DNA of 64,000 bases from a virus (taxonomy: Duplodnaviria > Heunggongvirae > Uroviricota > Caudoviricetes): the IMG/VR virus record IMGVR_UViG_3300005660_000003, positions 10,261-74,260 of that record, one strand, 5' to 3'. Shown here piece after piece: positions 3,329 to 38,773 of the stretch. Position 1 is the stretch's first letter. Each line of letters starts with the position of its first letter. The notes below the pieces were generated by a model. That model saw only the letters and a program-made list of their open reading frames with translations. It was not told the origin of the DNA and did not search any database. Made by a program: the position numbers and the translations under genes.

Positions 3329-3370
3329 GGTTCACCTCCGGTGGAAAGGAAAAGGGTGAGAAACAACACG

Positions 3371-3415
3371 GAATTTAGAAAAAGAAGCGAATATAGAGAA
3401 GTATAAGTAGAGTTT
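3371..3415 (+). promoter_or_regulatory. promoter-like cassette variant (tttagaaaaag...gagaagtataagtag) 26 nt upstream of HNH gene
   Basis: Shares the core with the motifs at 5431, 7757, 33407, 34213 and 16025 (minus). Confidence 0.45.
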
Positions 3416-3440
3416 AAATTTACATCTTGAAGGGAATAAC

Positions 3441-4250: not shown

Positions 4251-5412
4251 TGACAATACTAATTATTTCTTTATGTTCAATTAAAGCAGCAAATTGTTTC
4301 CTCATGTTAAGGCTCTTTATGAGATTATAGCTAATGTCACCAGAAAAGCATCCACTCTTAACAATTTCAGCAATTCTGTCAACATCCTTTTTCTTATTGA
4401 AGGTTTTTTCTTCAATTATTTTATCAGAATAGTTGATGAGTCTAGAAGATAAAACACTAGCAATATTCTGCTTGTAACCTGAGGTCTCTACTTTACCTAC
4501 TACGGCACTTATCTTGGCGATAGCAGCCTCATGGTCCTTAGCCTCAAAAATATCTTTTGGGGAAGGGACTCTATCTAACTTGTTATTAATGAATAAGGCA
4601 AAGCAGGCTGAGAATTCGGGGCCGACTGAACCCTCTCCTAAAAGCTGAATTAGGTTAAGGGTCTCTGGTGATCCGAAGTCTTCTAAGCTAGATATACTAT
4701 TAAAGTAGTCTGTGGCAAGTCTTGCGTTAGTTTTACCTTTAATCATTTCGGGATTTAACATGAGGAAGTTAATGCAGCGTGAATCTACTCCATCTCTTTC
4801 GGCCCAAGCCGCCCACTCATCAACCGCGAACTTCATTTCTAGTTTAATAAAGCGTGAGGATTGGGCGGAATCAAGATCACATACAATATACTCCCCATTG
4901 GATGGATTGCTAGTAAGGAATACGTGGCAGTCTGAAGGGAGTTTCCAACTGATGAACTCACCACGATCTATAAGCTCTAAGCAAGCCTGAATGACATGAG
5001 TGGCTCCGCGAGTCCAATCATCGAGCAAAAGAATCACTCCACTACCGTCTTTTGGAACCCAAGCTGGCGGTGAATATGAGGTTCTAGTGTTACCCGTCAA
5101 GGCAACAGTATTTTTATAACTATCTATTTGCTTACCTGATGCCCATGCAACACTGCTCCCTTCACTAGCAACATACTCATATTCTATGAAGGGAAACCCG
5201 CATAGATCACCAGCCTGTTCAATTTGGGCCAAGTTTATCTTAACCAAGCCTAATCCATTTTCCTTAGCTATCTGGCACATTAAGGAAGTTTTACCCAGTC
5301 CAGATTCACCCTCAATAAGAATAGAGTTCTTCTTTTTACCAACCTTTTCAAGGTGACGATTGTTATTAATCACGTGATTAAGCACACTTTTTACTTGAGA
5401 AATCTTAAGCAT
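4243..5412 (-). CDS. cobS: MoxR/CobS-like AAA+ ATPase
   Basis: Walker A GESGLGKTS and Walker B VILLLDDW. It has CbbQ/NorQ/CobS-like architecture and is paired with a VWA protein nearby. Confidence 0.7.
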   Translation of the reverse strand: MLKISQVKSVLNHVINNNRHLEKVGKKKNSILIEGESGLGKTSLMCQIAKENGLGLVKINLAQIEQAGDLCGFPFIEYEYVASEGSSVAWASGKQIDSYKNTVALTGNTRTSYSPPAWVPKDGSGVILLLDDWTRGATHVIQACLELIDRGEFISWKLPSDCHVFLTSNPSNGEYIVCDLDSAQSSRFIKLEMKFAVDEWAAWAERDGVDSRCINFLMLNPEMIKGKTNARLATDYFNSISSLEDFGSPETLNLIQLLGEGSVGPEFSACFALFINNKLDRVPSPKDIFEAKDHEAAIAKISAVVGKVETSGYKQNIASVLSSRLINYSDKIIEEKTFNKKKDVDRIAEIVKSGCFSGDISYNLIKSLNMRKQFAALIEHKEIISIVTK

Positions 5413-5430
5413 CTAAAAACTTTCTACGAA

Positions 5431-5473
5431 AAATAGAAAAAACATCAAATCTAGAGAAGTACTAGATAAGGGA
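5431..5473 (+). promoter_or_regulatory. promoter-like cassette aaatagaaaaaa-N8-tagagaagtactagataag, 28 nt upstream of HNH gene
   Basis: Conserved motif family (see findings). Confidence 0.5.
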
Positions 5474-5500
5474 TATGTAATTTACGCTAATTTAAACTGA

Positions 5501-6319
5501 ATGGGGAAATTTGTGAAAACTTGTAGAATTTGTAATATTATAAAGAGTTTTTCTGAATTTGATAAAAATAAAGACAGTAGGGATAAACTTAGGCACGAAT
5601 GTAAGATATGTCTTAAAAAACGCCGCTCAGAACGTTATTTTAAAAATAAAAAACCAAAAGATATTACAAATAAAAAGATTATTAGTGTTAATAAAAAATG
5701 TTGCAAGTGTAAAGAAACTAAGAACTTGGACATGTTTAGTAAAAATAAGAACAGATTTGATGGTGTAAACGGAATGTGTAAAAAGTGTTATGTTACATAT
5801 AAATCTCAATATCAAGTAGAAAATAAAGAAAAGATTAAGCAGTACAACGATATGTATACCGTTAAAAACAAAGTAGCTAGACAAAAATATAAAAAGAAAT
5901 ATAGTTTAGAAAATAAAGATAAAATAAATCAGACTAATAAAAAATATTATTCTAATAACCCGAGTGTTAAAATAGGTAGAAGTTTAAGTGGTAGAGTTAG
6001 AAGTGCTATAAAAAATTCTGGCGGGACAAAATCCCAATCTTCTTGCGAATTTCTTGGATGTACAAGAGATGAAGTCTGTAAGTATTTAGAATCTAAATTT
6101 ACAACAGGGATGACTTGGGAGAATCACGGATTATATGGTTGGCATATAGACCACATAAAGCCGTGCGATTCTTTTGATTTAACAAATCCTGAGCAGCAAA
6201 GAGTTTGCTTTCATTATACCAATCTCCAACCACTTTGGGCGACTCGTGACATAGCAATGAGTTACGGTGAAGGCCCGGATTATGTAGGTAATTTGGAAAA
6301 ACATAACAAGCTATTGTAA
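5501..6319 (+). CDS. HNH homing endonuclease (two CxxC zinc-finger modules plus Lys-rich repeats plus HNH)
   Basis: C-terminal 80 aa are about 80 percent identical to the copy at 7832..8524. Confidence 0.8.
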   Translation: MGKFVKTCRICNIIKSFSEFDKNKDSRDKLRHECKICLKKRRSERYFKNKKPKDITNKKIISVNKKCCKCKETKNLDMFSKNKNRFDGVNGMCKKCYVTYKSQYQVENKEKIKQYNDMYTVKNKVARQKYKKKYSLENKDKINQTNKKYYSNNPSVKIGRSLSGRVRSAIKNSGGTKSQSSCEFLGCTRDEVCKYLESKFTTGMTWENHGLYGWHIDHIKPCDSFDLTNPEQQRVCFHYTNLQPLWATRDIAMSYGEGPDYVGNLEKHNKLL

Positions 6320-6541
6320 TTCCCAAGCCCACGGGCTTTGTCTAAAATTAATGATGCTTTTGGCACTTATATCGTTTTCTTTGAAAAATTCTAATACCTC
6401 TTTTCTAACATCACCTAAGTAGTCTTCATTAAATGGTAAGCTTGTCCATATAATTTTGTGTCCATTATCTAGGGTAAAAATATCCAAGTAACAATAATCC
6501 TTATATAAATAGTCTTTTCTACAAGCAATATATCTTTTCAT
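6311..6541 (-). CDS. small hypothetical protein
   Basis: 76-aa ORF with a 4-nt overlap to the VWA gene. Confidence 0.35.
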   Translation of the reverse strand: MKRYIACRKDYLYKDYCYLDIFTLDNGHKIIWTSLPFNEDYLGDVRKEVLEFFKENDISAKSIINFRQSPWAWELQ

Positions 6542-7725
6542 TTTAGGCCCTCAGCTAGGATTTTTTTTCCGGGGAAATTAACCAATTTAGGGTCTCCCCC
6601 AGCGGTAACCACCCACAAAATTGGCCTAGATCTCATTAAGTACTTTCCCGAAACGTATCCATCGGTAAACATTATAAGGGCGTTATATTTATTGCCTTTA
6701 TTAAGTAACTGGATCACTTCAGTGGGGTCAGTACCGCCGCCGCCCTTTACCTGACTATTCTGCCATTTCTTTTTATTTGAAAAATCAAATTTATCTTGAA
6801 TTCCAAAGTCCCAAGTAACTATCTCTATTTCTACACCAGATTTATTCATATATGAAATTTGATTAAAGAATTCAGAGAGCTGACTAGGACTAATTGACCC
6901 GCTAACGTCTACCCCCACAAGCATTTTTCTTCTTTGGTTTAAGGTTATTGCTGCCTGATCTGGATACCTCTTATTGGGTTTATTTTGTGTAAACTTTATA
7001 ACCTGCTTATCACAAAAGGATTTAAACTGCCGCATAACCTGTCGCCAATCCAGTACTGGTGGAGTTTTAATGTAAAGATTTAGAATAAAATCCCTAAGGT
7101 GTCCGGGAACACTTCCGGGCTGTTTATTAAAGGTGTGCTCATACACCTCTTTCATTTGGTGTTCTATTTGGGCTTTTATAAGCTCCTTCATACCGTCAGG
7201 GATAGGCTCCCCATCTTCTGCTGAGTCCCACAATGGATGCCCGCACACAGTTTTGCCGCCCTGCTTCATGAAGTTGACTAAACCCTTCAACTTCGGGGAC
7301 TTATTGTTTTGATTAGCTTTACACAACTCGTCGTAGTAAAACTTAGTGTCTTTAAATGGTGGAAGATTTAATTCTGGGAAAGAGGTTGGAAGCATAGCGT
7401 TTGGCGGAAGGTAATCTGTTTCGATATATTGATTTATTACCATATCGGCAGCTATGTTATAAATCTCTTTCTCTGCGTAGTTATCCCAATAAATTAAATG
7501 AAACAAACATATATGACCTACTTCGTGTTCCATTAGTCCTATCTTTTGTTTGTCTGTAAGCTTATTAAAATATTCCTCATTAAACCACATATCGATCATC
7601 ATTCCATTAATTTGGCAGCAAGCAGTTGGAATATGATCTGAAAAAGCCTTTTGAATTCCAAGTGCGAGGTGCCCATAGTACGGTGACCGGTACAGAAGCC
7701 CTTTACTACATTGTACTAAATCCAA
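6538..7725 (-). CDS. VWA-domain protein with N-terminal HExxH metallopeptidase-like motif (CobT-like partner of the AAA ATPase)
   Basis: HEVGHICLFH zincin motif. MIDAS-type VGVDVSGSIS motif of the VWA fold. Confidence 0.65.
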   Translation of the reverse strand: MDLVQCSKGLLYRSPYYGHLALGIQKAFSDHIPTACCQINGMMIDMWFNEEYFNKLTDKQKIGLMEHEVGHICLFHLIYWDNYAEKEIYNIAADMVINQYIETDYLPPNAMLPTSFPELNLPPFKDTKFYYDELCKANQNNKSPKLKGLVNFMKQGGKTVCGHPLWDSAEDGEPIPDGMKELIKAQIEHQMKEVYEHTFNKQPGSVPGHLRDFILNLYIKTPPVLDWRQVMRQFKSFCDKQVIKFTQNKPNKRYPDQAAITLNQRRKMLVGVDVSGSISPSQLSEFFNQISYMNKSGVEIEIVTWDFGIQDKFDFSNKKKWQNSQVKGGGGTDPTEVIQLLNKGNKYNALIMFTDGYVSGKYLMRSRPILWVVTAGGDPKLVNFPGKKILAEGLK

Positions 7726-8949: not shown

Positions 8950-10035
8950 TTATTCATAATTCCTAATACAAATCATAACTGGAAATCTTGGTATACCATC
9001 AGATGTCAATTCAAAATATCTTATGGTAGCATATAAACCAATTAGAGTATCTGCCTCTTCAAGATATCTAAGTCTTTCGTTATCTGTACCCTTAGGTACA
9101 GCTTCAAACGTTTTGCCATTATCCATTTCAAATTCAAATGTAGGAATTAATTCAAATCTTCCCTTGCCAACTTTCCACCCAATAATTTTGTATTCAAAAT
9201 CTGTGAAGTCTTTTAATTTTAAGAGATCACAACTTCTTTTATTGGGTTGATATAAAGAAGTAATATTTCTTATCATGGTTCCTTCGCTGCCAGAAGAAGC
9301 TAATTTCTTGTGCCAAGAGTATAGTTCTTCTTCTGTTTTTAATATTTTCCACGGTACAATTTTTGTATGCTTTAAACCAATAACAAGTAGATCTAGCTCT
9401 ACTACTCTTTCGTGGTAAGTTTTTTCATTAATAATATCAAAAGCATAGAAAAATATATCCTCCATTCGAGGGTCTGTTGATTTACTCTTGCGGACAATTG
9501 ATATGATCTCCTCAAAAGAATAGGTGTCACTATACAATTCCCCATCTAACACAACATCATCTTTATTAAGTCTAATCAATTCTTCTGTAATATGATTAAG
9601 GCCAACAAGCTCTTTTCCTGTTCGACTAACACATGTTGCAACTCCATCTTTAATGGTTATTATACAACGTATTCCGTCAATTTTAATAGATCCAATAGCT
9701 GGCCAAGAAATTTTATGAGTATAATCTTTATATTTATGGGCCAACATAGGCAGGTTAGGCTTCTCCTCTGGTATAACCTTACTATACCCTTTCCTATCTA
9801 TTTGTTTCTGATGTTTTGCATCAGCTTCCGCAATACACTGCTCCTCTGGGGTTGTCTCATTGCTTCTACCAATATTTTTCCCTTTTAATACATAAACCAC
9901 AGCTTCCTGCATAGCTCCACCCACGGAGCCGTGGGTGACTTTATAGAAGTGGCCCTTGGCATCTTTTCCGGTAGAAATTTCCCATTCTCTTATCTTATCT
10001 TTAGAATCTTTTTTATATAGTTTCAAGTTCTGCAA
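8950..10035 (-). CDS. ATP-dependent DNA ligase (T7-like size)
   Basis: Nucleotidyltransferase motif I KIDGIRC and motif DGELY. The 361-aa length is similar to minimal phage DNA ligases. Confidence 0.65.
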   Translation of the reverse strand: MQNLKLYKKDSKDKIREWEISTGKDAKGHFYKVTHGSVGGAMQEAVVYVLKGKNIGRSNETTPEEQCIAEADAKHQKQIDRKGYSKVIPEEKPNLPMLAHKYKDYTHKISWPAIGSIKIDGIRCIITIKDGVATCVSRTGKELVGLNHITEELIRLNKDDVVLDGELYSDTYSFEEIISIVRKSKSTDPRMEDIFFYAFDIINEKTYHERVVELDLLVIGLKHTKIVPWKILKTEEELYSWHKKLASSGSEGTMIRNITSLYQPNKRSCDLLKLKDFTDFEYKIIGWKVGKGRFELIPTFEFEMDNGKTFEAVPKGTDNERLRYLEEADTLIGLYATIRYFELTSDGIPRFPVMICIRNYE

Positions 10036-10041
10036 AGCTCC

Positions 10042-10596
10042 TTATGTATTTTTTTCCACTAATTTTTGAATATCCCCACAAGTGGAAATATTCTTCATAA
10101 TATATTTAAATCCTTTATACACTGAATCCTGATTTAAAATCTTCAACAATAAAAACTGCTCATATTTTGTAGCTAGCAGAAATACAAGTCCTGCCAATAT
10201 GGTGCGTTCTCTATTATGCACAGTAAATATATTATCTTCAAAATTCATTTTACCTAATAGGTCTTCTGCTAATTTTTTAGTAGCCTCATCTTTTGATATA
10301 AACATGTCCACAAGTGTTTTAGGATTTATTTCGTTAGAAAACGTAGTAAATTTTCTTTCATATGTACTTTTTATGCAGAAAAGATTTCCAACTGTAATTT
10401 TGGGATCATACTTTAGGGCGGTTGATATTAATGCGTTAGTAAAAGTTCTATCTACATAATATGTAAAACGCACATCAGGCTGATGATAATCAACTATCTT
10501 TATCTTTTCATTATATTTTTCTTCCATTAGATCTTCAATGTAAGTTTTTTCACCAGCACCCAAATTTATAAACGAACAAGCAAAGGCTTTACCCAA
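10042..10596 (-). CDS. hypothetical protein
   Basis: 184-aa ORF. Confidence 0.45.
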   Translation of the reverse strand: MGKAFACSFINLGAGEKTYIEDLMEEKYNEKIKIVDYHQPDVRFTYYVDRTFTNALISTALKYDPKITVGNLFCIKSTYERKFTTFSNEINPKTLVDMFISKDEATKKLAEDLLGKMNFEDNIFTVHNRERTILAGLVFLLATKYEQFLLLKILNQDSVYKGFKYIMKNISTCGDIQKLVEKNT

Positions 10597-18431: not shown

Positions 18432-18465
18432 TATAAATATCCCATAAGTAGTTTAAAATAAAGAT

Positions 18466-18538
18466 TGCGGCACACGGGATTTGAACCCGCAACCTCCGGT
18501 TTGGAAAACCAGTACTCTGCCAATTGAGTTAATGTCGC
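18466..18538 (-). tRNA. tRNA, probable Gly (anticodon UCC)
   Basis: Hand-folded cloverleaf: acceptor 7 bp with one A-C mismatch; D arm actc/aattggcag/gagt; anticodon stem ctggt/accgg; loop tttccaa; T arm gcggg-ttcaaat-cccgt. No encoded CCA. Confidence 0.55.
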
Positions 18539-18649
18539 ATAAATAGTTAGATGGTTCCTTAAGTGGACTTGTCTCGAATGATCTAGGCCGGTATCCAGAT
18601 CACCGTCTATATCTAACTAAGTATAAACCTCAGAATCATTCTTCGGTTT

Positions 18650-18985: not shown

Positions 18986-19096
18986 TGAGTCCGGCAGGAT
19001 TCGAACCTACAATCTACTAATCCCCGAGCACTTCTTGTTTACGGGAAAATTCGAAGCACAGTATAGTGTGCCGCGTTTGCATTTCGCCACAGACTC
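18986..19096 (-). ncRNA. tRNA-like element of atypical length (111 nt): good acceptor stem and T arm (gtagg-ttcgaat-cctgc) but oversized interior with extra hairpins
   Basis: Acceptor gagtctg/cggactc pairs over 7 bp. The interior contains hairpins gcaca-ctatac-tgtgc and cccg-N15-cggg. It cannot be folded by hand into a canonical cloverleaf. Confidence 0.3.
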
Positions 19097-21986: not shown

Positions 21987-22070
21987 TCCGCAAGACAGGA
22001 GTCGAACCTGCACGGGTTGTTAACCCAATAGCTTCTAACGCTACCGTGACTACCATTTCACCACTCGCGG
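21987..22070 (-). tRNA. tRNA-Leu (anticodon UAG), type II with long variable arm
   Basis: Hand fold: acceptor ccgcgag/cttgcgg; D arm gtga-aatggtag-tcac; anticodon stem gtagc/gctat with loop gtTAGaa; variable arm gggtt-aac-aaccc; T arm gcagg-ttcgact-cctgt. Length 84 nt. Confidence 0.6.
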
Positions 22071-22699: not shown

Positions 22700-23250
22700 G
22701 AACCCAGCCGACTGGAGCGGTTTTATCATCGTTTGGCTGTACTAGATGACTTACGCCTTTTGGCGTTACCTTTTAAAAAGCTCCATTCGGAGCACTCTGA
22801 AAATTATCTTCAGCCCCGCCCCAAGATGCTCGTTTGTCTATTGTTATTTGCGATCTTCCTGCCCGTTTACATAGTTCATCGCCGAGTGCAGACTGTTCCT
22901 TGTAGCCTGCACTCGCATCAGCACTGTCGAACAAAACTTGACGAGACTTTCTTCTCCGAATTCTTTGTCGAATTCCGCCGGAGTGGAGAAATTCATCGCT
23001 CCGGAAATCCTCCACAGCATCGACTGCTCTTGCTTCGATAGATCGCAAATCAACACGCCACACCTCGCAAATAACAAAAAAATGCACAAGAGCCGCGATG
23101 GTCAGTTTTCACACATGGACGCTGGGCTCGTCGCGGCCATGTGATTTTTGGCGTTATTGGGTCTTCACACCAAATGAAGGGAACATTACGTTGTTTGCTT
23201 AATACTTTCTTCAAGATTCTTCTCCTAATACCAAAAATATTTAGAAGCAT
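22700..23250. other. GC-rich compositional island (about 50 percent GC in a one-third-GC genome) with only short, mutually overlapping ORFs on both strands
   Basis: Visible base-composition shift. No ORF product has recognisable motifs. One minus-strand frame is open from 23087 to about 22487 except for a single TAA at 22771-22773. Confidence 0.4.
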
Positions 23251-23437
23251 CATCTACAGACGATAGTTCTTCGGGCTCAAACACATGGGCGTCCTGCATA
23301 TTGCACTCACCATGTTTATATACAAGACATTTACCTGATCTGGTATAGTAACCAAATTCAAACAAAAAAGAGAAAGGCTTTTTAATAACTTTGTTAAAGC
23401 CATATGTAGCTAACACCGCTTGTTCTCTTTTAAACAT
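23225..23437 (-). CDS. small hypothetical protein
   Basis: 70-aa ORF downstream of nrdB. Confidence 0.35.
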   Translation of the reverse strand: MFKREQAVLATYGFNKVIKKPFSFLFEFGYYTRSGKCLVYKHGECNMQDAHVFEPEELSSVDDASKYFWY

Positions 23438-23444
23438 ATGACCC

Positions 23445-24503
23445 TCAATTCAAAAAGTCAAAATTCATAGTATCAACATCATTTACAGAAGCCCCAATTT
23501 TATAGGCATTATCAAGTTCTGTTTCTTGAGGGGCTTGTTGCGTAGAACTTGGGTTCATCCAATTGTTTACCCAACCACCTATAGGATTTTTAGTATTAAA
23601 CTCTTTCTCAAATCCAATATTCGTTAATCTGCTGTCTGTCAGCCACTCAATATACCCATGAAGAATGTGCTCATTTAGTCCAATAATCGCCCCATTTTTA
23701 AATAAGTGGGTCGCCCAATCCTTTTCTTGTTGGGCCGCCTCAATAAACATTAGTCTAGATTCCCCAGCTAGATCTTTAGCCACTTCTACAAAGCCCTCGT
23801 CTTTTTCTTTTTGTAGAATATCTATAATAGACTTTGTAATGGTTAAGTGAATAGCCTCATCTGCCCGAATCTTACTAATAATCTTAGCATTACCGATCAT
23901 CTTTTTGTTTTCAGCAAACGCAAAAGAACAAACAAAAGACACATAAAACCTAAGGGCTTCTAAAACATTAACACTTATTAGGGTCAAGTATATTTGTTCT
24001 TTTATATCTCTTGTGCCAAACTTAAGATTATCATACTGTTGAGACGCTACTTCTGCCCTTTTCATAATCTCTACATTTTGTAATATCCCGTCAAAAATTT
24101 CACTTGAACTCGGATAAACAGCCTGTATTACGGTTGAATATGATTTTGAGTGTATATTTTCATAAAATGCCCACGCACTCATACAGGTTTCTAGTTCGGT
24201 ATTTGTAACATGGTCCATTAGAATAGGAACACCCCTACTAATTACAGAGTCTAGTAAAGTTTGATATTGTAAGTTAGATGTAAAAATAAACCGTTCATTT
24301 TCATTCATATTCTTAAAATCTGTTTTATCTTGGGCCAAATTAAATTCATTCGGGGTCCAAAATAAGTCGGTTTGTTTGTCGAATAGGGATACGAATATTG
24401 GGTACTTGGGATCGTCATATCTTTGAATTGATAGATCTTCCCCTAGGAAAAGTGGCTGTGTTTTATTGTCTACTAAATTTCTATTTAAAATAGTTTTTTT
24501 CAT
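23445..24503 (-). CDS. nrdB: ribonucleotide reductase class Ia beta subunit
   Basis: Di-iron ligand pattern (E..H twice) and 352 aa. Immediately downstream of nrdA. Confidence 0.8.
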   Translation of the reverse strand: MKKTILNRNLVDNKTQPLFLGEDLSIQRYDDPKYPIFVSLFDKQTDLFWTPNEFNLAQDKTDFKNMNENERFIFTSNLQYQTLLDSVISRGVPILMDHVTNTELETCMSAWAFYENIHSKSYSTVIQAVYPSSSEIFDGILQNVEIMKRAEVASQQYDNLKFGTRDIKEQIYLTLISVNVLEALRFYVSFVCSFAFAENKKMIGNAKIISKIRADEAIHLTITKSIIDILQKEKDEGFVEVAKDLAGESRLMFIEAAQQEKDWATHLFKNGAIIGLNEHILHGYIEWLTDSRLTNIGFEKEFNTKNPIGGWVNNWMNPSSTQQAPQETELDNAYKIGASVNDVDTMNFDFLN

Positions 24504-24512
24504 TTGTTTTTT

Positions 24513-27500
24513 CTAAATTGAACAGGCCCCACCAGAACACCCTGACTCAACAGTCATATCGTCGGTGCCGTCTGGGGTTACTAAGTAATACAGGTTTTTA
24601 ATACCCAATTTGTGTGAGTATATCATTTGTTTAATTATTTCAGATAGTGGAATTTTACCATTAGGATAATTATTATAATCCATAAAAAGATTTAGAGATA
24701 TACTCATACATATCCATCTTTGCATTGATGCATAGATTTTAATATGATGGAGCTGATCTACCATTTCAAATGCTGTTGTGTAATAATTCTTATTTTTAGG
24801 CCAAGACGGAGGAATAACCTTAATTGCCCCAGAGCCAGATTTTTTAGTAGTCAAAAAACTACGTATTGCATCTACCCCATTTGTAGAATTTTGCACAACC
24901 GAAGACGATTCTACCGGCATTTCTGCAAGTAATGTAGAATTCATAAGACCGAACTCTAATATTCTTCCACGTAATTTTTCCCAATCCATTTTAGGTTTAT
25001 CTAAAAACTTTAACTCTTTAGCTGTGTCAATTGGTAAAATTCCATCTGCCCATTTAGTTTTTTCAAACCAAGGCATTCTTTCACCCAACTCTTCTGCTAT
25101 TTTACAAGAGGCACTTATCATATAATAGGAAACTTTTTCAAAAATATCAGAGGTTTCCTGCAGTACTTCTTGAGATGTAAGCTTTATCTTTTTGCTAGCC
25201 ATATAGGCCGCATAATTAGTGATTCCTATCCCTAGCGACCTATAGTTCTTACAAAAGTTTTCTGCTGCCGGGAATCTATACTCTTGAGAATCTATGACTT
25301 CGTGCAATATTCTAGATATAATATAGCACACACTTTCATACTCTTCTTCTTTTGTTGTAAGAACATTAACAGCAGATAGCACGCACACACCAATTAATCC
25401 ATCAGGGTCCTGTAGGTGTTGTACTGGTTTAAGTGGGTGAACGACCTCTTGGCAATTTCCAGTTAAAATCCCATTAAATACAGCTTTATGTTCTAACGGC
25501 TCATTTAAACAATACGTATCATCTTTTCTACCGTCGTCCGTTATATTGGCTACCGTAATAAATTGAGATGCCTCTCTCTGTGGTAATCTTTGATTAAATT
25601 TTAATCTATTTGTTTTAAACCCCATCAATGAAAGCTTATATAAATCATTTGAATTTATTAATAGTCTTTTTGTTTCCTTGCATGAGAATAATTTATACCC
25701 GCCACGACCATCTGGTAAAAGTCTGTCTCCAGTTTCTACTCCATTTACAATTTTACTATTTATACCAAGGGTTTGAAGCATTAATTGTAATTCATAAATA
25801 AATTCTTGCTCTATAGAAGAAACCTGTATTGACTCATTTGTTCCATTTCTAGCTATAGTTCCATCTCCATCTAAATAACCAGCTAACCAAGCGAGTTTTA
25901 TTTTAACCGAAGAGTTAGTTGGTATTTTAAATTTCATAGGCATATCTTCATGCATTACAACATTTCTTCTACCAGAGGTGTCTTCTCCTCTATCTTTTTT
26001 AATATCTAGAAACTTAACAAGATTTTTCTTTTCTCCATATAGAGATATTCTTCTTGCCGATCCAGTCTCATGTGTTCCGTCAGCACAAAATAGTCCGTGG
26101 GTATATGGATATTTAAAATCTTCTGATCCATCTACAATAGGTAGATCAAATTTACATAGCTTGTCACCCACCTTAAGATCTTTAGTTTCTTTAATGGTTA
26201 ACTTACCCTTAACTTGATCTGCATATGACTCAACAATATACCACTTGTGGTATGGTGTGCATTCTAAATATTTACCATCTGAAAGTATAACTTTAACAAG
26301 TTTTTTATTAACCCCAGTTTTTACAACTTGCGTTTTTGACCATTGTTTACCATTCCAAACAGATACAATTTCATTTTCTAGTTCACGTATTGGAATGTGA
26401 CCATCTTTCGTTAGTAACAATGTCTCTGGAGCAACACACAAATTACTAGTAGTAACTCTTTCTTTAAAAGTACTGTGCTCATTCACATTATCTATGTGCA
26501 TAATATATATACGGCCAGTTTCAAGTCTTTCTTTTGCTATTTGGTTTAATAACTCAGATGCCTTTATTCTCTTTGAGAACTTTCCCCCTTTTTCTTCTGC
26601 TCTTGTGTAGATCTCATCAAATTCGGGTAGTCCAAAACTATTATAAACCTCGGGAAATTCATGATAACTCATTAAGGTAACGTCCTCACCCTTCATAAAT
26701 CTATTATAAAGAATTCCACTAATCTGTATACAATAATCCATCCATCTTACCTTATTTTCATCCGCCCCCTTATTATTCTTATAAGTGAGAATATCCTCTA
26801 TCTCTGGATGAAAGAATGGGAAATTTATTGTAGCAGAACCTTTTCTAATTCCTCCTTGTGAGGTTGAATTAACAGAACTTTCAAGTAGCTTTGCAAACGG
26901 GCGAATACCTGTATGTTTAACTTCCCCGTTTCTAATAGGGGCATTTCTAGCCCGGATAGATCCCATGTCTAAGCCAATTCCAGACCTATCTGCTACATAC
27001 TGCCCGACTATATGACTAGACGAAAAGATGGAGTTTAATGTATCATCAATTTTAATTAATATACAGCTTGAGTAATTCTTTAGTTTAGTTCTTACGCCAG
27101 CTAAAATGGGGGTAGGGAGATTTATTTTAAACAAAGAAAGATAATCATAAGTTTTCTTTATTAAGTCTAATCTATTCTCGTAACTCTTAAATAAAACCAT
27201 TGGAATTAATATAAAAGCGAATTGGGGAGTTTCATATATTTTCCCCGTTGATCTATCCTTAATTAGATACTTATCACACATTTGCTGAATACCAGCGTGG
27301 GTAAACATAAAGTCTCTATCATGTTTAACCATTTTATTTATTTTGTGTATTTCAGACTCTGAGTATTCCTTTAGTATGTCCTCATTGTAAATAGTCTTAT
27401 TTTTTCTAAGATGGTCATACAACCTAGGTGGGTCACTTTCTCCCCAGACTTGTTTTCTTAGGGCGTATGTCCGCAGCCTCCCGGCAACATATTGATAATT

Positions 27501-27719
27501 AGGATTATCTAATGTTATTAGGTCATACGCCGATCTTACTAATATCTCTTGTATATCAGAGGTTTTCATCTTATTTGATATTGAAATCTTAGCGTTCATG
27601 GCTACATCACTAGCTGATACGTCACTTAAATCGCTACATGCCCACTCAAGGACTTTGTTAATTTTTTCAGCATTAAATTCTTCTAATTTACCATTTCTCT
27701 TTTTTATTTGTAAAGTCAC
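24513..27719 (-). CDS. nrdA: ribonucleotide reductase class Ia alpha subunit containing an intein
   Basis: N-terminal ATP-cone, then SNL-C...N-CQEV. The extein is about 740 aa. The 328-aa insert has Hint blocks and LAGLIDADG motifs. Confidence 0.9.
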   Translation of the reverse strand: MTLQIKKRNGKLEEFNAEKINKVLEWACSDLSDVSASDVAMNAKISISNKMKTSDIQEILVRSAYDLITLDNPNYQYVAGRLRTYALRKQVWGESDPPRLYDHLRKNKTIYNEDILKEYSESEIHKINKMVKHDRDFMFTHAGIQQMCDKYLIKDRSTGKIYETPQFAFILIPMVLFKSYENRLDLIKKTYDYLSLFKINLPTPILAGVRTKLKNYSSCILIKIDDTLNSIFSSSHIVGQYVADRSGIGLDMGSIRARNAPIRNGEVKHTGIRPFAKLLESSVNSTSQGGIRKGSATINFPFFHPEIEDILTYKNNKGADENKVRWMDYCIQISGILYNRFMKGEDVTLMSYHEFPEVYNSFGLPEFDEIYTRAEEKGGKFSKRIKASELLNQIAKERLETGRIYIMHIDNVNEHSTFKERVTTSNLCVAPETLLLTKDGHIPIRELENEIVSVWNGKQWSKTQVVKTGVNKKLVKVILSDGKYLECTPYHKWYIVESYADQVKGKLTIKETKDLKVGDKLCKFDLPIVDGSEDFKYPYTHGLFCADGTHETGSARRISLYGEKKNLVKFLDIKKDRGEDTSGRRNVVMHEDMPMKFKIPTNSSVKIKLAWLAGYLDGDGTIARNGTNESIQVSSIEQEFIYELQLMLQTLGINSKIVNGVETGDRLLPDGRGGYKLFSCKETKRLLINSNDLYKLSLMGFKTNRLKFNQRLPQREASQFITVANITDDGRKDDTYCLNEPLEHKAVFNGILTGNCQEVVHPLKPVQHLQDPDGLIGVCVLSAVNVLTTKEEEYESVCYIISRILHEVIDSQEYRFPAAENFCKNYRSLGIGITNYAAYMASKKIKLTSQEVLQETSDIFEKVSYYMISASCKIAEELGERMPWFEKTKWADGILPIDTAKELKFLDKPKMDWEKLRGRILEFGLMNSTLLAEMPVESSSVVQNSTNGVDAIRSFLTTKKSGSGAIKVIPPSWPKNKNYYTTAFEMVDQLHHIKIYASMQRWICMSISLNLFMDYNNYPNGKIPLSEIIKQMIYSHKLGIKNLYYLVTPDGTDDMTVESGCSGGACSI
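25455..26438 (-). mobile_element. intein (residues 428-755 of NrdA) with LAGLIDADG homing-endonuclease domain, inserted at the thiyl-radical Cys (SNL|C)
   Basis: Starts CVAPETLLLTKDG (block A). TPYH (block B). HGLFCADGT and LAGYLDGDGT motifs. Ends ...TGN followed by +1 Cys. Confidence 0.8.
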
Positions 27720-27819
27720 TATCGTTCTTTCATGTACTAAATTCTCCTGTAATTAAAAGTTAAAACCGAAAATATTACTTAAAAATCTTTGTGGGCAACA
27801 AGCCCGTACTACATATGTC

Positions 27820-28173
27820 TCACCAGTCGTAGGTAAAGCTCCATATAAACTTATCTAATATTTCTTCTTTAAGCTGGTCAATATTTATTTTGGGATAAGT
27901 TTCCCCATTATCAAGCTCTATGCTATTGATAACATTTATTAATTTTACTGTTTCGTACCTACTCACTGAATAATCCCCGTCGTATGATATAAAGTTTTTG
28001 GGTAATGATTTAAATTTTTCTACATAAACTTTATTTACACCAACTAGATGTCCGCACATTTCAAATATTTCCCACCGTAATTTTAGTGGTATATTCTTGT
28101 CCTGACAATAAGACTTAACTGTATCACCAAGGCCCGCTAATGTTTTTAGTATAGCCTCTATTGTTTCTTTCAA
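27820..28173 (-). CDS. hypothetical protein
   Basis: 117-aa ORF. Confidence 0.4.
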   Translation of the reverse strand: MKETIEAILKTLAGLGDTVKSYCQDKNIPLKLRWEIFEMCGHLVGVNKVYVEKFKSLPKNFISYDGDYSVSRYETVKLINVINSIELDNGETYPKINIDQLKEEILDKFIWSFTYDW

Positions 28174-28350
28174 GTTATAATCTCCTGCCTAATTCATTTA
28201 GCCTAATGGCAACTTCATACTGTTTTATTTCATCGTCTACATTGAGCTTTAGAGATGGGTGACAATGCTCATCTATTTCTTTTTGATCGCACCCTAATAT
28301 CTTCATCCATTCTGCCCTAATTTCGTGGGCGGTTTTACCGATCACGCTTT

Positions 28351-28872: not shown

Positions 28873-30102
28873 TTAAGAACGTAAAATTTTTGCTTGTAAA
28901 TCAGATTGTGATACAGGAAAGGTTAAGGTATCAAGTAAATATAACTTAGATACATCTATGAACTCTATCATTGCTTTAGCCATACATTTGTCCGCAGCCC
29001 CCATCTCTACCCTTATATCAAAACGCCCAGATCTAGTAAGAGCCTCATCTAGAATTTCTAAATTGTTAGTAGTGGCAAATACGACGGAACCCTCGGGAAG
29101 ATCAACACCGTCTAACATGCGTAGAATAAGAGATAGATCGGAAGACTTTTCATTTTCTTCTGTTCTTTTATGTAAACATTTATGACAATCTATATCTTCT
29201 AGTACAATAAATGGGCAATCTTTTAATTTTGCCAAATTTTTAAGGACCGAAGTTAGGTTTTTATTATTTTCACTAAAATCAACGTACAAAATGTTCTTGT
29301 TGTATTTGGTCGCTAATGCTTGTATAAGCGAACTTTTTCCGGTACCGGGTGGCCCATGAAGCAATATTCCTAAATTTTTATTTTGCCCAAGCTTTGTAAA
29401 TCTTACATCTTCGTGAAAAGAAGACTCTATGGCGTGGTCTATGGTCAACAGGTCTACCTTATCCATAAAAATAGAGTCAATAGATCTTGGTTTTATTTCT
29501 CTTATTTTGTATTCATCACCGTAATCGCCCATTTTATAATAACTTGGCTTTTTGGTATTTAGTTCATGAAAAGAAGTGAATTCTTCGTAAAAATTGTTAC
29601 GGTTCTGCCTAGGAGAAACCCCCATAAAGTATACACTAATAGTTTCTGTTTTGTCTTGTGTGTGGTTAGAAGAATCTTGAGAGACAGCAACTTTAACTAC
29701 CGTGTGCCAGTTATAAATAAACCAATGGGCCCCAAAACCTATTTGGTGTAGTGAGTTTAATCTATTGGGTCTTTTGGGCGTTATATTTTTATGTGTTCTT
29801 GTCCCATCTAAACTAAAATTTACACGGTACGCTTCACTTTTTTTACCAACATACTCTTCTGTTATTTTAATGCTTTTAGGGTTTTTAATAAATCGTGAAA
29901 TAAAAGAACTAAAGCTATTATAGTAGTCAACTTCTCTATGGGAAGATATTGTAATTTCTCTAATAAAGAAACTTCTAAAGATACTCCAAGCAAACATAAA
30001 CCAATTTTTGGCATATGCTAAAATAGTAAAGCTAAGACTACCACCTATGGCTCCAGATAAGAATTGATTTGTTTTAACTTGGTCTAAGATCCAATCGTAC
30101 AT
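28873..30102 (-). CDS. AAA ATPase, BCS1-like (N-terminal membrane anchor)
   Basis: Walker A GPPGTGKSS. Walker B FIVLEDID. SRH ...TTNNLEILDEALTRSGRFD. Confidence 0.65.
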   Translation of the reverse strand: MYDWILDQVKTNQFLSGAIGGSLSFTILAYAKNWFMFAWSIFRSFFIREITISSHREVDYYNSFSSFISRFIKNPKSIKITEEYVGKKSEAYRVNFSLDGTRTHKNITPKRPNRLNSLHQIGFGAHWFIYNWHTVVKVAVSQDSSNHTQDKTETISVYFMGVSPRQNRNNFYEEFTSFHELNTKKPSYYKMGDYGDEYKIREIKPRSIDSIFMDKVDLLTIDHAIESSFHEDVRFTKLGQNKNLGILLHGPPGTGKSSLIQALATKYNKNILYVDFSENNKNLTSVLKNLAKLKDCPFIVLEDIDCHKCLHKRTEENEKSSDLSLILRMLDGVDLPEGSVVFATTNNLEILDEALTRSGRFDIRVEMGAADKCMAKAMIEFIDVSKLYLLDTLTFPVSQSDLQAKILRS

Positions 30103-35395: not shown

Positions 35396-35741
35396 CATAG
35401 CTGACTCTATAAAAAATGTTGCTAACACTGAGAATATAAGTAATATTGAGCTTGAAAAGGCTTACATTGCTTACATGGGTGCGTATCAATATGGAAAACT
35501 ACTTGACTTTGAAGGCTGTGAAGACTTCGCTGAATTATTTGACAAGATGCGGCTCGTTACCACTCGCCTACAATATGTTAGGAATGCTAAACTGAGTGAT
35601 GCGGCCTATGCAGAATTAAAAGAATTCGAAAAAGATGATAAGGGAAACCCCATTCCTTTTGATTCCGAGCATCAGGCTGCCTTTATGGAGAAGGCTTATC
35701 AAGTAGCGGAAGGTCTAAAGGCAGCAATTGAACGTGAATAA
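35313..35741 (+). CDS. secreted hypothetical protein (start uncertain, overlaps upstream ORF)
   Basis: Signal-peptide-like N-terminus. 142 aa. Confidence 0.35.
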   Translation: MLIRNFFIFTAICVSQILVIAQTSPQSNIADSIKNVANTENISNIELEKAYIAYMGAYQYGKLLDFEGCEDFAELFDKMRLVTTRLQYVRNAKLSDAAYAELKEFEKDDKGNPIPFDSEHQAAFMEKAYQVAEGLKAAIERE

Positions 35742-36798
35742 AACAAGGCATTATGTTTATAAAATAACAAATAAGATTAATGGTAAGTTTTATATTGGTA
35801 TTAAATCTTCTAGGCTTAACTTTTTAGATACTAATTATTATGGAAGTGGGAGGTTAATTAAAGCTTCTATTAAAAAACACGGTAAAGAAAATTTCTTAAG
35901 AGAAGTTCTTTTTGAATTTAGAACTCGTGAAGAAGTCTTAAGTAAAGAAAAAGAATTGGTTACCAAAGATTTAGTTAGTAGCCATAATTGTTACAATATA
36001 ACAGTTGGTGGTGGAGGATTTACCAATCTCAATTATCGTTCACTTCCTATAAAGAGTCTTGATTTTATGGGTAAAATAACTTACTATAAGTCTATGCTTG
36101 ATGCCTCACTTTTAGTTAAGGGATGTAATAGAACTGGCGTGCGTAATGCTATTATTGGTAAAGCAAATACCCATAATAATTTATATTGGTCTAAAGCTGA
36201 TAAAGACTTTTTAATCAAGAAAAATAGAAACTCTATTACCCCGTGCTTTTCACTAGATGAAAATAGTAGTAAAATTTACTATAATTCATTTTCAGAAGCC
36301 TCAAAGGCTACAGGGGTAGCTTGTAGTATAATCAGGAGATGTGTGGTTTCTGGTAAGGGCACTGGTGGCGGATTTAATTGGTATAAAACTACATCAAAAT
36401 TAGACTCATCTAGTTTCCGTGGAAAAAATTATTTAACTAGAAAACCTTGTATTTCTATAGATAAGACTGGTGCAAAGAAATATTATTCTTCTATTACTGA
36501 AGCTAGTAAGCAAACTGGTATTTGTAATACAAATATTTGTTTATGCTTAAAATTAAAAGCACGTTCTGCTGGTGGATTATCTTGGTATTATACCGATTCT
36601 GAAACAAATAAATTTAATGGAGTCGGTCCCCGCACCAAGTGTTACGAAAGTACAGATTCTAGAGGAAATAAAAAACGTTATAAATCCTTAAAAGAAGCTG
36701 CAAAAAGCAACAATTACAGTGTAGATTATATCTCTAAAGCTGCTAAAAATAATTTATTAGTTGCTGGATTAAAATGGGAGAGAATAAATGCTAAATAA
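35728..36798 (+). CDS. GIY-YIG homing endonuclease with C-terminal repeated helix-turn-helix (NUMOD/IENR-like) DNA-binding modules
   Basis: HYVYKITNKINGKFYIGIKS is GIY-(10)-YIG. Repeats YY(N/S)S(F/I)(S/T)EASK.TG. Overlaps the intein-containing gene start by 11 nt. Confidence 0.8.
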   Translation: MNVNKTRHYVYKITNKINGKFYIGIKSSRLNFLDTNYYGSGRLIKASIKKHGKENFLREVLFEFRTREEVLSKEKELVTKDLVSSHNCYNITVGGGGFTNLNYRSLPIKSLDFMGKITYYKSMLDASLLVKGCNRTGVRNAIIGKANTHNNLYWSKADKDFLIKKNRNSITPCFSLDENSSKIYYNSFSEASKATGVACSIIRRCVVSGKGTGGGFNWYKTTSKLDSSSFRGKNYLTRKPCISIDKTGAKKYYSSITEASKQTGICNTNICLCLKLKARSAGGLSWYYTDSETNKFNGVGPRTKCYESTDSRGNKKRYKSLKEAAKSNNYSVDYISKAAKNNLLVAGLKWERINAK

Positions 36799-38773
36799 TA
36801 CTGAGGGGTGGATTCACGACCCACGAGCCATAGAAGAGGTGATGTCTTCTCTTGAGCAACCATTCTTTTTTCAAGCGGCTGACGTTTTACAAGCTACTGG
36901 TAAGGGTAAATCAGCTTACCTTTATGAGAATTTTAAAAAGTTAAATATTCCATATCCCAAGCCACTCCAAGCTGGCGAAGGAGACTGTTTTAATCCGTCT
37001 TCATTAGTTACTATGGCTGACGGCTCTAAGAAATCTATCATTGATATTAAGGTTGGTGATTTAGTAATTTCTGCAATTGGTAATATTAAAAAGGTTTTAT
37101 CGGTATTTAATAAACCGTTTACTGGTAAAATGATTAAAATAACTACTCAGAGTTACCATAAACCATTGATTTGCACACCTGACCATAAATTAGTTCAATG
37201 TGTTAGTAAAAATACCACTAGATGGAATCGAGCGGATCTATTAGATCTTAAAGATTATATTCTAGTTTCAAAAATGCCTAACATAAATAATGAAAAAATA
37301 TACGATTTATCACAAATTTGTCCGAAGTCTGAGAACGTAGGTACTGATCAAATTAAAGCAATTAGATCTAATAAATTAGCTAACAGATTTATTAAGAATT
37401 CAGAAAAATTATTTTGGTTATTCGGTATGTATTTAGCTGAGGGAAGTTGTGACTTAGGTGGTGACAAATTACCAAAAAGAATTACATTTAACCTATCTAA
37501 TGATGAAATTTTAATAGCTGAAAAAATTAAACAATACATTAAAGATGTTTTTAATCTTGATGCTATTATTTGTAGTGTCCCATCGAAACCAAGTGTTTTG
37601 TACGTAAGAATTGGTAGTTATTTATTTGCTAATTTTGTTAAACATTTTTGTACCGGAAACGTTTATTCTAAATCATTTAGTGATGACTTTAAAATAGAAT
37701 CATTTTCTAATAAGTTAGCATTGCTTGAGGGATGGATGGATGGTGATGGATGGGAAGATAGAAAAGGCGTAACCGTAAGTGAAAATTTAGCTTATAATTT
37801 TTTTGATATAGCTAATTCTTTGGGCATGAATGTTAGAATTGATCATCGTAAAGCATACAAACAAAGTAAAAAAAGTTATTCGGTCGATATTAATTGTAGT
37901 GTTAAAACTTATGAAAAAGCTAAAGTTTTTACGAAAACTAGACTAAGTTATAATTTTATCACTAAGGTAGGTAAAGCTGCTAAAATAAAAAATGTAGAAT
38001 ATATTGAGCCAGAAACTGACAAGGTTTATTGTATTGAGGTAGAGGGTGATAACTCATTTATCTGTGACGGTTATGGTGTTCATAACTGCGTCTCTCACGC
38101 CACATCTTTGGCACTCGACACTTTATCTGTTACTGAAATTGTAAATGGCGATAGAGAAGTTTGGGTTGCAAGATCCGCTAGCGAATACGTTTATCATGTT
38201 TCTAGGATGGTAATCGGTAAAGGTAGATTTGGCTCCGGCGGAGGGTCCGTGAATGCTTATGCCGCTAAGGGTCTTCAGGAATATGGTAGTTTACGACGAA
38301 CCCAATATAACTCTGTAGATTTAACTAAATACTCTGAGAAAAGAGCGTATTCTTGGGGTCGTGGTTCTATTCCTAAAGATCTTTATGACATAGCTAAGGC
38401 CCAGAATATTGGTAAATTTGCAGCTATTAAAAATTTTAGTGATGCGTGCGACAGTCTTTATAATGGATATCCAATTGTTGTTGCGTCAAGCCAAGGGTTT
38501 TCTTCTACGAGAGATAAGGATGGTTTTTGTAGACCTCAGGGTAGCTGGATGCATTCCATGAGTGTACTTGGATATAAAGACGGTAGTCGTCCCGGTGTTG
38601 CAATTTGTAATTCTTGGCCCAGCTTTTTACCCGGAGAAAATGAGTTTGGGTTACCACCATCGTGTTTCTTCTGCGATGCTTCTGTCTTTGATAATATGTG
38701 TAAAATGGGTGACACTTTTTCATTAGCCGGATTTAACGGTTTTAAACCACGTGCCGACGCTCGTGTAATTTAA
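36788..38773 (+). CDS. papain-like (C1 family) cysteine peptidase interrupted by an intein
   Basis: The 294-aa extein has Q-x5-C (QAGEGD|C), ...HSMSVLGYKDGS... and NSWP...GENEFG, matching papain Q19/C25/H159/N175 plus NSWG...GENGY. Confidence 0.7.
   Translation: MLNNTEGWIHDPRAIEEVMSSLEQPFFFQAADVLQATGKGKSAYLYENFKKLNIPYPKPLQAGEGDCFNPSSLVTMADGSKKSIIDIKVGDLVISAIGNIKKVLSVFNKPFTGKMIKITTQSYHKPLICTPDHKLVQCVSKNTTRWNRADLLDLKDYILVSKMPNINNEKIYDLSQICPKSENVGTDQIKAIRSNKLANRFIKNSEKLFWLFGMYLAEGSCDLGGDKLPKRITFNLSNDEILIAEKIKQYIKDVFNLDAIICSVPSKPSVLYVRIGSYLFANFVKHFCTGNVYSKSFSDDFKIESFSNKLALLEGWMDGDGWEDRKGVTVSENLAYNFFDIANSLGMNVRIDHRKAYKQSKKSYSVDINCSVKTYEKAKVFTKTRLSYNFITKVGKAAKIKNVEYIEPETDKVYCIEVEGDNSFICDGYGVHNCVSHATSLALDTLSVTEIVNGDREVWVARSASEYVYHVSRMVIGKGRFGSGGGSVNAYAAKGLQEYGSLRRTQYNSVDLTKYSEKRAYSWGRGSIPKDLYDIAKAQNIGKFAAIKNFSDACDSLYNGYPIVVASSQGFSSTRDKDGFCRPQGSWMHSMSVLGYKDGSRPGVAICNSWPSFLPGENEFGLPPSCFFCDASVFDNMCKMGDTFSLAGFNGFKPRADARVI
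36986..38086 (+). mobile_element. intein (367 aa) with LAGLIDADG endonuclease domain, inserted immediately before the catalytic Cys of the peptidase
   Basis: CFNPSSLVTMADG (block A). CTPDH (block B). LFGMYLAEGS and LLEGWMDGDGW. Ends GVHN|C. Confidence 0.8.

Follow-up and report, generated by a model that had tools for sequence, protein, structure and literature searches.

Inteins in ribonucleotide reductase (RNR) genes are known from several phages and cyanobacteria, and the insertion site that is used here is the one most common among them (PMC2677866). We describe such an intein in the nrdA gene of an uncultured phage (Caudoviricetes), represented by a stretch of 64,000 nucleotides (positions 10,261 to 74,260 of IMG/VR record IMGVR_UViG_3300005660_000003) that is referred to below as the window and to which all coordinates apply unless stated otherwise. 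Among the described systems, the NrdA intein of Vibrio phage ICP1 (HQ641347, ORF203, annotated as 'intein-containing ... precursor') sits at the same point (SNL/C.../C.E, where a slash marks a splice junction) and has a length, with its relatives, of 325-333 aa; the relatives occur in Aeromonas phage PhAER-4, Vibrio phages PG07 and VnaP, the Rheinheimera Barba phages and the Staphylococcus Silviavirus. These inteins share with that of the window the HINT domain with two LAGLIDADG motifs, the CVAPET start, a T-P-Y-H block B, Cys at position F:4 and Thr-Gly at G:5-G:6. They are 43-48% identical to it over the full length, none being a near relative, and differ in that most of them end in Gln (Asn in the window) and have Phe at B:12 (Trp in the window); the RNRs in which they reside are only 19-40% identical to that of the window.

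The cyanobacterial RIR1 inteins (Crocosphaera watsonii WH 8501, Microcystis, Hydrococcus) belong to the same family (44-47% identity) and are found at the equivalent RNR Cys, but they end in FNGILTGQ/C, with a C-terminal Gln, and interrupt a cellular RNR with the flanks GVNL/C.../CTESFSNV. The bnrdE (RIR1) intein of SPbeta/SPBc2 is likewise of the LAGLIDADG type, precedes the radical Cys and ends in ...FNGIVTGN/C with a penultimate Gly, whereas it is only ~23% identical, has Asp at F:4, is longer (the 'putative intein' feature counts 1155 bases, ~385 aa) and is hosted by a class Ib NrdE that also bears a group I intron, and not by a class Ia NrdA as in the window. The split NrdA inteins of the ocean 'fractured genes' (Dassa et al. 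2009) interrupt the protein at the same point, N-terminal to the thiyl-radical Cys, but have a free-standing endonuclease gene between their halves, whereas the window intein is contiguous with an internal LAGLIDADG domain. Against this background, the nrdA insert is very probably a standard intein of the class 1 type, which bears an endonuclease and is located directly before the thiyl-radical Cys. It is a divergent addition (at most 48% full-length identity) to a well-known RNR intein family and its arrangement is ordinary.

The nrdA precursor and the anatomy of its intein

The locus comprises the following features:

24513..27719, minus strand: nrdA precursor open reading frame (ORF) of 1068 aa (GTG start, 121.8 kDa), class Ia RNR alpha subunit with an in-frame intein
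26439..27719, minus strand: N-extein, precursor aa 1-427, ending in ...RVTTSNL (Pfam; alignment to E. coli NrdA)
25455..26438, minus strand: intein of 328 aa (37.1 kDa), precursor aa 428-755, from CVAPET to GILTGN
25452..25454, minus strand: Cys+1 codon (precursor aa 756), aligned to E. coli C439
24513..25454, minus strand: C-extein, 313 aa plus stop, starting with CQEVVHPLKP (alignment to E. coli NrdA)
23445..24503, minus strand: nrdB, RNR small subunit, 352 aa (Pfam Ribonuc_red_sm, 5.5e-52)

The nrdA ORF was found to contain the Pfam domains ATP-cone, Ribonuc_red_lgN and Ribonuc_red_lgC, with a match to the RNR barrel domain (aa 217-1046) that bridges the insert. In the N-extein lie the ATP-cone (aa 4-89, window 27453..27710), the all-alpha domain and the barrel's initial portion, with a Cys that is aligned to E. 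coli C225, and the C-extein holds the residues aligned to E. coli E441, C462, Y730/Y731 and the C-terminal CxxxxC pair. After deletion of the insert, the 740-aa extein was collinear with E. coli NrdA over its whole length (E = 3e-188); the alignment runs ungapped through the junction and places the +1 Cys on C439 of SNLCLEI, and the catalytic residues were all aligned (C225, N437, C439, E441, C462, Y730, Y731 and the C-terminal Cys pair; motifs SSCIL, SNLCQEV, GVCVLS, NLYYL and GCSGGACSI). The ATP-cone, the all-alpha domain, the ten-stranded barrel and the adjacent NrdB identify the protein as a class Ia NrdA, and the product of nrdB, which starts 9 nt downstream of nrdA, is the partner of the spliced form. 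The reading in the first-pass annotation, that of a 1068-aa class I NrdA with a LAGLIDADG intein at the conserved active-site Cys, a classic insertion site, is in full agreement with these domains, with the alignment and with the literature cited above. As judged from the alignment, Cys+1 would act as the second nucleophile of splicing and, once the intein is out, as the thiyl-radical Cys in the active site of the RNR.

The intein junctions read TTSNL/CVAPET and GILTGN/CQEV. Another IMG/VR contig (UViG_3300044678_001814, denoted L016) encodes an NrdA of 74% identity that lacks the intein and likewise reads RVTTSNL-CQE, and tblastn of this protein against the window gave two segments, one ending at 26436 and one resuming at 25454, which share only the Cys codon. 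The reconstituted nrdA site (AGAGTTACTACTAGTAATTTGTGCCAAGAGGTCGTTCACCCA) and the natural empty site of L016 (AGAGTTACGACTAGTAATCTATGTCAGGAGATCACCCATCCA) match in 34 of 42 nt; the halves of the 42-bp empty-site sequence around the insertion point are AGAGTTACTACTAGTAATTTG and TGCCAAGAGGTCGTTCACCCA. The sole formal ambiguity is a slide of one residue, since the intein begins with Cys, as does the C-extein; it leaves the product unchanged, and to start the intein at the first Cys is the usual convention. On the basis of these comparisons, the insert was confirmed as real and its boundaries as exact to the base, the translation and L016 leading to the same 328 aa at 25455..26438 between SNL and CQEV that had been proposed.

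The first-pass annotation had further noted that the C-terminal junction, TGN/C, lacks the penultimate His, and had allowed for a boundary mis-set in such a way that this His was hidden. The former is correct: Gly327 is penultimate, the closest His on the intein side is at position 317 and that on the extein side at +5, and no His-Asn occurs within 12 residues of the C-terminal junction. The idea that the boundaries are off by a few residues and that a canonical His-Asn end exists after all has virtually no chance of being right, given that the extein aligns to E. coli NrdA and to L016 without gap or overlap beyond the shared Cys and that the ends of more than 85 homologues fall in one register with that of the window intein. 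It was rejected on the E. coli NrdA alignment, the L016 break points and 71 metagenomic junctions.

The intein itself was dissected as listed here, where A2 stands for an alignment of 14 trimmed full-length inteins related to that of the window:

26400..26438, minus strand: splicing block A (CVAPETLLLTKDG), with Cys1 as N-terminal nucleophile; C1, V2, A3, P4 and T6 are invariant in A2
26235..26276, minus strand: splicing block B (GKYLECTPYHKWYI), with Thr61 (B:7), His64 (B:10) and Trp66 (B:12)
26070..26108, minus strand: first LAGLIDADG motif (PYTHGLFCADGTH), with acidic Asp120 (A2)
25854..25895, minus strand: second LAGLIDADG motif (LAWLAGYLDGDGTI), with acidic Asp192 (Pfam LAGLIDADG_3; matches to I-CvuI and I-MsoI)
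25476..25523, minus strand: splicing block F (DDTYCLNEPLEHKAVF), with Cys310 (F:4) and His317 (F:13)
25455..25475, minus strand: splicing block G, NGILTGN, with Thr326 (G:5), Gly327 (G:6) and Asn328 (G:7)

The nucleophiles and helper residues of class 1 are present (Cys1, Thr B:7, His B:10, His F:13, Asn G:7 as the cyclising residue, and Cys+1), and the only class 1 element that is absent is the penultimate His, the place of which at G:6 is taken by Gly327. In the first LAGLIDADG motif (GLFCADG), G115 and G121 are invariant in A2 and position 120 is Asp or Glu in 14/14 sequences; in the second (LAGYLDGDG), W184, G187, D190, D192 and G193 are invariant. Pfam LAGLIDADG_3 matched the insert over its cut-off (7.6e-14) and Intein_splicing under its curated cut-off of 35.8 (24.4 bits, 2.8e-5), and a sequence search of the intein against the PDB gave just weak LAGLIDADG-motif matches (E ~0.3). 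The AlphaFold model of the intein with 3 flanking residues per side had a pLDDT of 92.8 and a pTM of 0.90, and its best Foldseek matches were the TliVMA and PhoVMA inteins, PI-PfuI, PI-SceI and PI-TkoII, while mini-inteins fitted the HINT part and I-DmoI the endonuclease part. Foldseek matched I-DmoI, I-Tsp061I and the endonuclease parts of PI-SceI and PI-PfuI, in support of the two-fold alpha-beta-beta-alpha-beta-beta-alpha fold of the endonuclease. The solved inteins TliVMA/PhoVMA (7qsu, 7qss, 7qst), PI-PfuI (1dq3, from an archaeal RNR) and PI-SceI (1vde) resemble the model in their overall fold (Foldseek E 4e-16 to 1e-11, TM ~0.55-0.64, identity 11-19%), but they are larger and have extra DNA-recognition regions. 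The insert is predicted, with high model confidence, to carry a HINT fold and a two-motif LAGLIDADG endonuclease domain.

Two observations concern the expression of the gene. Upstream of nrdA (window 27719..27748, minus strand) the sole Shine-Dalgarno-like AGGAG lies 25 nt before the GTG start and 10 nt ahead of an out-of-frame ATG. This ATG begins a mini-ORF of four codons (ATGAAAGAACGATAG), the stop of which overlaps the nrdA GTG (TAGTG); the arrangement could be translational coupling, or just a weak start. A promoter and terminator scan of window 23000..28300 showed no excess of sites over shuffled sequence.

The C-terminal junction and the splicing chemistry

To place the junction within its family we collected related inteins from various sources. 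A tblastn search against phage genomes matched 343 records, far beyond chance (best E = 3e-90), the best of which were 46-48% identical over the full length (Aeromonas phage PhAER-4; Vibrio phages PG07, VnaP and ICP1; the Rheinheimera Barba phages; the Staphylococcus Silviavirus; phages of Corynebacterium and Caulobacter); SPbeta matched more distantly. The 15 phage loci that were read (ICP1, T5-like and SPbeta included) all have the same insertion site and a junction composed of Thr/Ala, Gly/Ser/Met and Asn/Gln followed by Cys, with His in 0/15. The GenBank records of ICP1 and CcrSwift already annotate an intein at the site. In the ICP1 record (HQ641347, denoted L004, 1501..2490) the 'intein' of ORF203 is shifted at either end by two codons downstream of the boundaries that the chemistry requires, such that it starts at Ala and ends in ...GQCQ; the alignment gives Cys1...Gln/Cys, like in all relatives.

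From a collection of 5.8 billion proteins 98 homologues were retrieved, with a best full-length identity of 48% and a best partial match of 63% identity over 63% of the query, and a scan of IMG/VR for close relatives of the intein gave none above 44%. In the 71 metagenomic homologues with a readable C-terminal junction, obtained with a pattern that left F:4, G:5, G:6 and the last residue unconstrained, position G:6 was Gly (68), Ser (2) or Val (1) and never His, the last residue was Asn (48) or Gln (23), G:5 was Thr in 64, and F:4 was Cys in all 71. The 53 complete inteins all have Thr at B:7 and His at B:10, mostly Phe at B:12 (49; Trp in 3), and Asn (30) or Gln (23) at the C-terminus; Cys1 is present in 53/53, the pattern that collected them having demanded it, and it is also invariant in the 14 sequences of A2. 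The same family, at the same site, includes mini-inteins of 132-170 aa. Its cellular hosts are chromosomal RNRs, among them those of Crocosphaera watsonii WH 8501, Microcystis, Hydrococcus, Oceanobacillus, Leptotrichia and many metagenome-assembled genomes, and the cellular C-terminal junctions that were read (25/50 loci plus 5 more) show the same end without His. Members of the family are recognisable by an initial CVAP(E/Y)T and a terminal DT(Y/F)C...FNGILTG(N/Q).

Because Gly is the norm at G:6 across the homologues, and His never occurs there, TGN/C is not peculiar to the window intein; it is the normal state of the family, and no defect of the window copy. The literature agrees with such a state. 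Normally His G:6 assists the cyclisation of Asn, and certain inteins are slower without it, but about 5% of the functional inteins lack it, and its restoration aids some inteins and harms others (Mills, Johnson and Perler 2014; PMC4031507). Phage class 1 inteins show poor conservation of the penultimate His, with Gly, Lys and Ser being common at that position, and an upstream His in block F is able to take over its role (Kelley et al. 2016; PMC5050341); this block F His (His317) is kept in the window intein. The intein in gp51 of mycobacteriophage Bethlehem, a recombination directionality factor (RDF), is of phage class 1 with LAGLIDADG, Cys1 and a penultimate Gly, and it splices completely, whereas its G316H mutant builds up precursor (PMC5050341). 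It is the best experimental analogue of the TGN end, although it resides at another insertion site in another host protein and the likeness considered is one of residues. A non-canonical C-terminus that splices is also known from a viral RNR, that of Chilo iridescent virus, where the native Gln performs better than Asn (PMC4031507); the window intein ends in Asn.

The first-pass annotation had taken the missing His as a possible sign of an atypical splicing mechanism or of reduced splicing efficiency. The mechanism may be called atypical only in the weak sense that has already been documented for other inteins, and not as something special to this one. Reduced efficiency is not borne out: Gly at G:6 is the family norm, and the gp51 intein with Gly splices fully and is slowed by His. 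The family, moreover, resides in RNR genes of viable lytic phages and in cyanobacterial chromosomes, and the genomes in question depend on the host RNR; a reduced efficiency is therefore unsupported.

A class 1 route through the junctions would be the following. The 122-kDa precursor would fold its HINT domain, after which an N-S acyl shift would take place at Leu(-1)-Cys1 with the assistance of Thr61 and His64 of block B. Trans-thioesterification would then move the N-extein to the thiol of Cys+1, and Asn328 would cyclise without a His at G:6, probably with the help of His317 and of family-specific active-site residues, to free the 37.1-kDa intein. A final S-N shift would yield the 84.7-kDa NrdA with a native SNL-CQE bond. 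We infer these steps from established intein chemistry, and the residue that substitutes for His and the activity of the endonuclease are inferred likewise. Splicing is obligatory for NrdA function: the precursor would not be an active reductase, because the loop of the radical Cys is interrupted and that Cys serves as splicing nucleophile.

In its strongest form, the idea of a reduced efficiency would be that splicing is slow or redox-gated, due to Gly at G:6 and a site with three cysteines (Cys1, Cys310 and Cys+1), in which case NrdA maturation would be delayed, or else would depend on the redox state of the infected cell. Some inteins do become slower when His G:6 is lost (PMC4031507), disulfide control through catalytic cysteines, F:4 Cys included, has been documented elsewhere (PMC6195587), and an intein in the RNR R2 protein has been reported to improve cofactor loading, which means that RNR inteins are not always neutral (PMC8772380). 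Yet no feature of the sequence demands such control, and hundreds of RNR genes, phage and cellular, keep the same end, which speaks for adequate function. The tested phage intein with a penultimate Gly splices fully and is slowed by His (PMC5050341), and the RNR intein of Chilo iridescent virus is better off with its native Gln than with Asn (PMC4031507). We consider slow or gated splicing unlikely.

The residues at B:12, F:4 and G:5 point in another direction, namely to the class 3 inteins, whose signature is Trp B:12, Cys F:4 and Thr G:5 (PMC2807308, PMC5222942) and which have been described as a single lineage, mainly in helicase-type genes. The window intein has the full triplet (W66, C310 and T326), and one could envisage a class-3-like or hybrid mechanism in which Cys310, together with Trp66 and Thr326, attacks the N-terminal junction or relays the thioester, Cys1 is dispensable or secondary, and the loss of His G:6 is part of the altered active site. 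Cys was found at F:4 in 71/71 homologues with a pattern that did not require it, F:4 sits centrally in the active site, between the two junctions (PMC6195587), and 3 of 37 inteins with the triplet retain Ser1 or Cys1 (Tori et al.; PMC2807308). Class 3 inteins such as those of mycobacteriophage Bethlehem DnaB and of Msm and Mch DnaB-1, however, have no nucleophile at position 1, usually Ser or Thr at +1 (one exception is known), His at G:6 and mostly helicase-type host genes; the window intein is unlike them in its Cys1, Cys+1, Gly G:6 and RNR host. Cys1 is found in 53/53 complete members (where the pattern required it) and in all 14 of A2, and Thr B:7 and His B:10 in 53/53, as class 1 predicts. 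Trp B:12, which is required in the tested class 3 inteins (PMC5222942), occurs in just 3/53 members, with Phe in 49. Finally, a second, unrelated intein of the window (see below) pairs Cys1 and Cys F:4 with a normal His-Asn end, and because of this Cys F:4 alone is no sign of class 3. A class-3-like mechanism is extremely improbable.

A more general variant, which we hold to be very improbable, is that the CVAPET...TG(N/Q) RNR inteins form a distinct Cys1 group, in which the block F Cys, Thr G:5 and the aromatic B:12 share in catalysis. If this were true, Cys310 might relay the thioester or pair by a reversible disulfide with Cys1 or the radical Cys, which would explain why His G:6 is dispensable and could couple RNR activation to the redox state, and the family would, in evolutionary terms, bridge class 1 and class 3 phage inteins. 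The probability that Cys310 has a catalytic or redox role is low.

Homing and the state of the endonuclease

The intein is 43-48% identical to its counterparts in eight phage relatives, whose exteins are just 19-40% identical to the window NrdA. Intein identity was above extein identity in 14/14 relatives compared, which indicates horizontal spread to one conserved site. The nearest NrdAs from isolated phages (T4-like cyanophages and pelagiphages, ~47%) are free of inteins, and so is the nearest metagenomic NrdA (L016, 74%); a megablast of the whole nrdA gene against 50,697 phage genomes gave no match, hence no close isolate. The distribution of the intein is what would be expected if the element homes into a single conserved DNA site in genes that are unrelated. 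In such homing, the two-motif LAGLIDADG domain would cut an intein-free nrdA at the site that encodes SNLC.E, and repair would copy the intein in.

Several related contigs deserve mention in this respect. On L016 only the nrdA-nrdB pair (2887..6269) resembles the window (NrdA 74%, NrdB 80%), the 3-kb flanks on both sides having no detectable similarity to it, and the RNR cassette is therefore shared between otherwise different phages. Three IMG/VR contigs (L026, L027 and L029) have a cyanophage-like nrdA in which the same site holds another insert (SNL/CLDIETSFVNSVEIDG...), and the NrdA extein is matched there up to residue 431; these genes may be split-intein 'fractured genes' as in Dassa et al. 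2009.

A rival to active homing is an intein that is competent in splicing, has an inactive endonuclease and is fixed and vertically inherited in this phage lineage. Four contigs, from four different sample accessions, were read; they are 100% identical to the window over overlaps of 3.9-5.1 kb and cover the C-terminal 250 to 984 bases of the intein, the N-terminal junction being included in none and one contig ending inside the intein. Metagenomes that carry the phage are JGI 3300027802, ERZ27275351, SRR5580760 and SRR6266368. That the copies read in four samples do not differ from the window and all have intein sequence is in line with fixation. So are the mini-inteins among the relatives, which show that the endonuclease does get lost within the family, and the fact that no near-identical intein was found in other genomes (phage genomes, the collection of 5.8 billion proteins and the IMG/VR scan; best full-length identity 48%). 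The codon usage, too, is fully adapted to the window: the intein matches the window genes at least as well as the extein does, and as well as nrdB. Its third-position GC content (GC3) is 0.19, versus 0.29 for the extein, and neither GC3 nor codon usage provided a usable signal as a compositional trace of recent foreign origin. On the other hand, both LAGLIDADG motifs, the acidic residues and all positions that are invariant in A2 are intact, the endonuclease domain is modelled with high confidence, and a related phage allele (L016) offers an empty and near-identical target (34/42 nt). By its sequence the endonuclease looks intact, and its inactivity seems doubtful to us, albeit with a real chance of being true.

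Some considerations weigh against the reading of the insert as a standard, endonuclease-bearing class 1 intein. Splicing and DNA cleavage are deduced from the sequence and a predicted fold, and the best full-length identity is 48%, hence no experimentally tested intein is a near relative. The lack of His at G:6, together with Cys for the usual Asp at F:4, may cause the acyl shift and transfer (the first three steps, from precursor folding to trans-thioesterification) to depart from the textbook. Moreover, the four contigs that reach the intein all carry it (4/4), and current mobility is unproven because no intein-plus versus intein-minus polymorphism was seen within the phage population.

A second intein, the window context and implications

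The window contains further mobile elements and a number of other genes and features that could be annotated:

36986..38086, plus strand: second intein, 367 aa, LAGLIDADG type, CFNPSS...GYGVHN/C, inside ORF 36788..38773
35728..36798, plus strand: free-standing homing endonuclease gene, GIY-YIG and NUMOD-like, SegE-like
28873..30102, minus strand: BCS1-like AAA ATPase
8950..10035, minus strand: ATP-dependent DNA ligase
6538..7725, minus strand: DUF2201 metallopeptidase/VWA-like protein (PHROGs family label 'HNH endonuclease', without Pfam support)
18465..18539: tRNA-Gly
21987..22070: tRNA-Leu

The second intein is unrelated to that of nrdA and has the canonical penultimate His and a Cys at F:4. 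Its spliced host of 294 aa matches intein-less hypothetical proteins of 291-297 aa with up to 76% full-length identity, and the invariant residues of this host family are Cys67 (the +1 residue of the intein), His222 and Asn241-Ser-Trp. No match to the family was found in 50,697 phage genomes, nor by sequence in the PDB. The AlphaFold model (pLDDT 91) of the closest host homologue (P0099, 76% identical) has a fold that matches xylellain and the cathepsins B, L, S and K, and the intein is predicted to sit just before the putative catalytic Cys of a papain-fold protease; another homologue (P0107) carries a shorter intein. To our knowledge, an intein ahead of the catalytic Cys of a papain-fold peptidase is unusual, and the second intein is more unusual than that of nrdA.

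The end of the GIY-YIG gene overlaps the start of the ORF with the second intein by 11 nt, which makes two kinds of mobile elements adjacent. AAA ATPases are encoded more than once in the window, and the tRNAs number two to three. Between tRNA-Gly and tRNA-Leu the Rfam tRNA model was matched over its full length at 18986..19096 (minus strand; 111 nt, 39.2 bits), a stretch that was not called by ARAGORN; it is too long for a plain tRNA and may be an interrupted or long-arm tRNA.

As one divergent member, from an uncultured phage and at the commonest RNR intein site, the nrdA intein has little bearing on intein biology as such, but it corrects the view of the TGN end as an anomaly. For RNR phylogeny or the assignment of a subclass, the intein has to be taken out of the gene before it is read. 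Many of the matched phage nrdA genes are labelled merely 'ribonucleotide reductase' or 'hypothetical protein', and the signature of Cys1, block B Thr/His, Cys F:4 and Thr-Gly-Asn/Gln is a compact boundary rule for hundreds of unannotated phage nrdA genes. The constant block F Cys in a family with Cys1 is a cheap question for intein enzymology.

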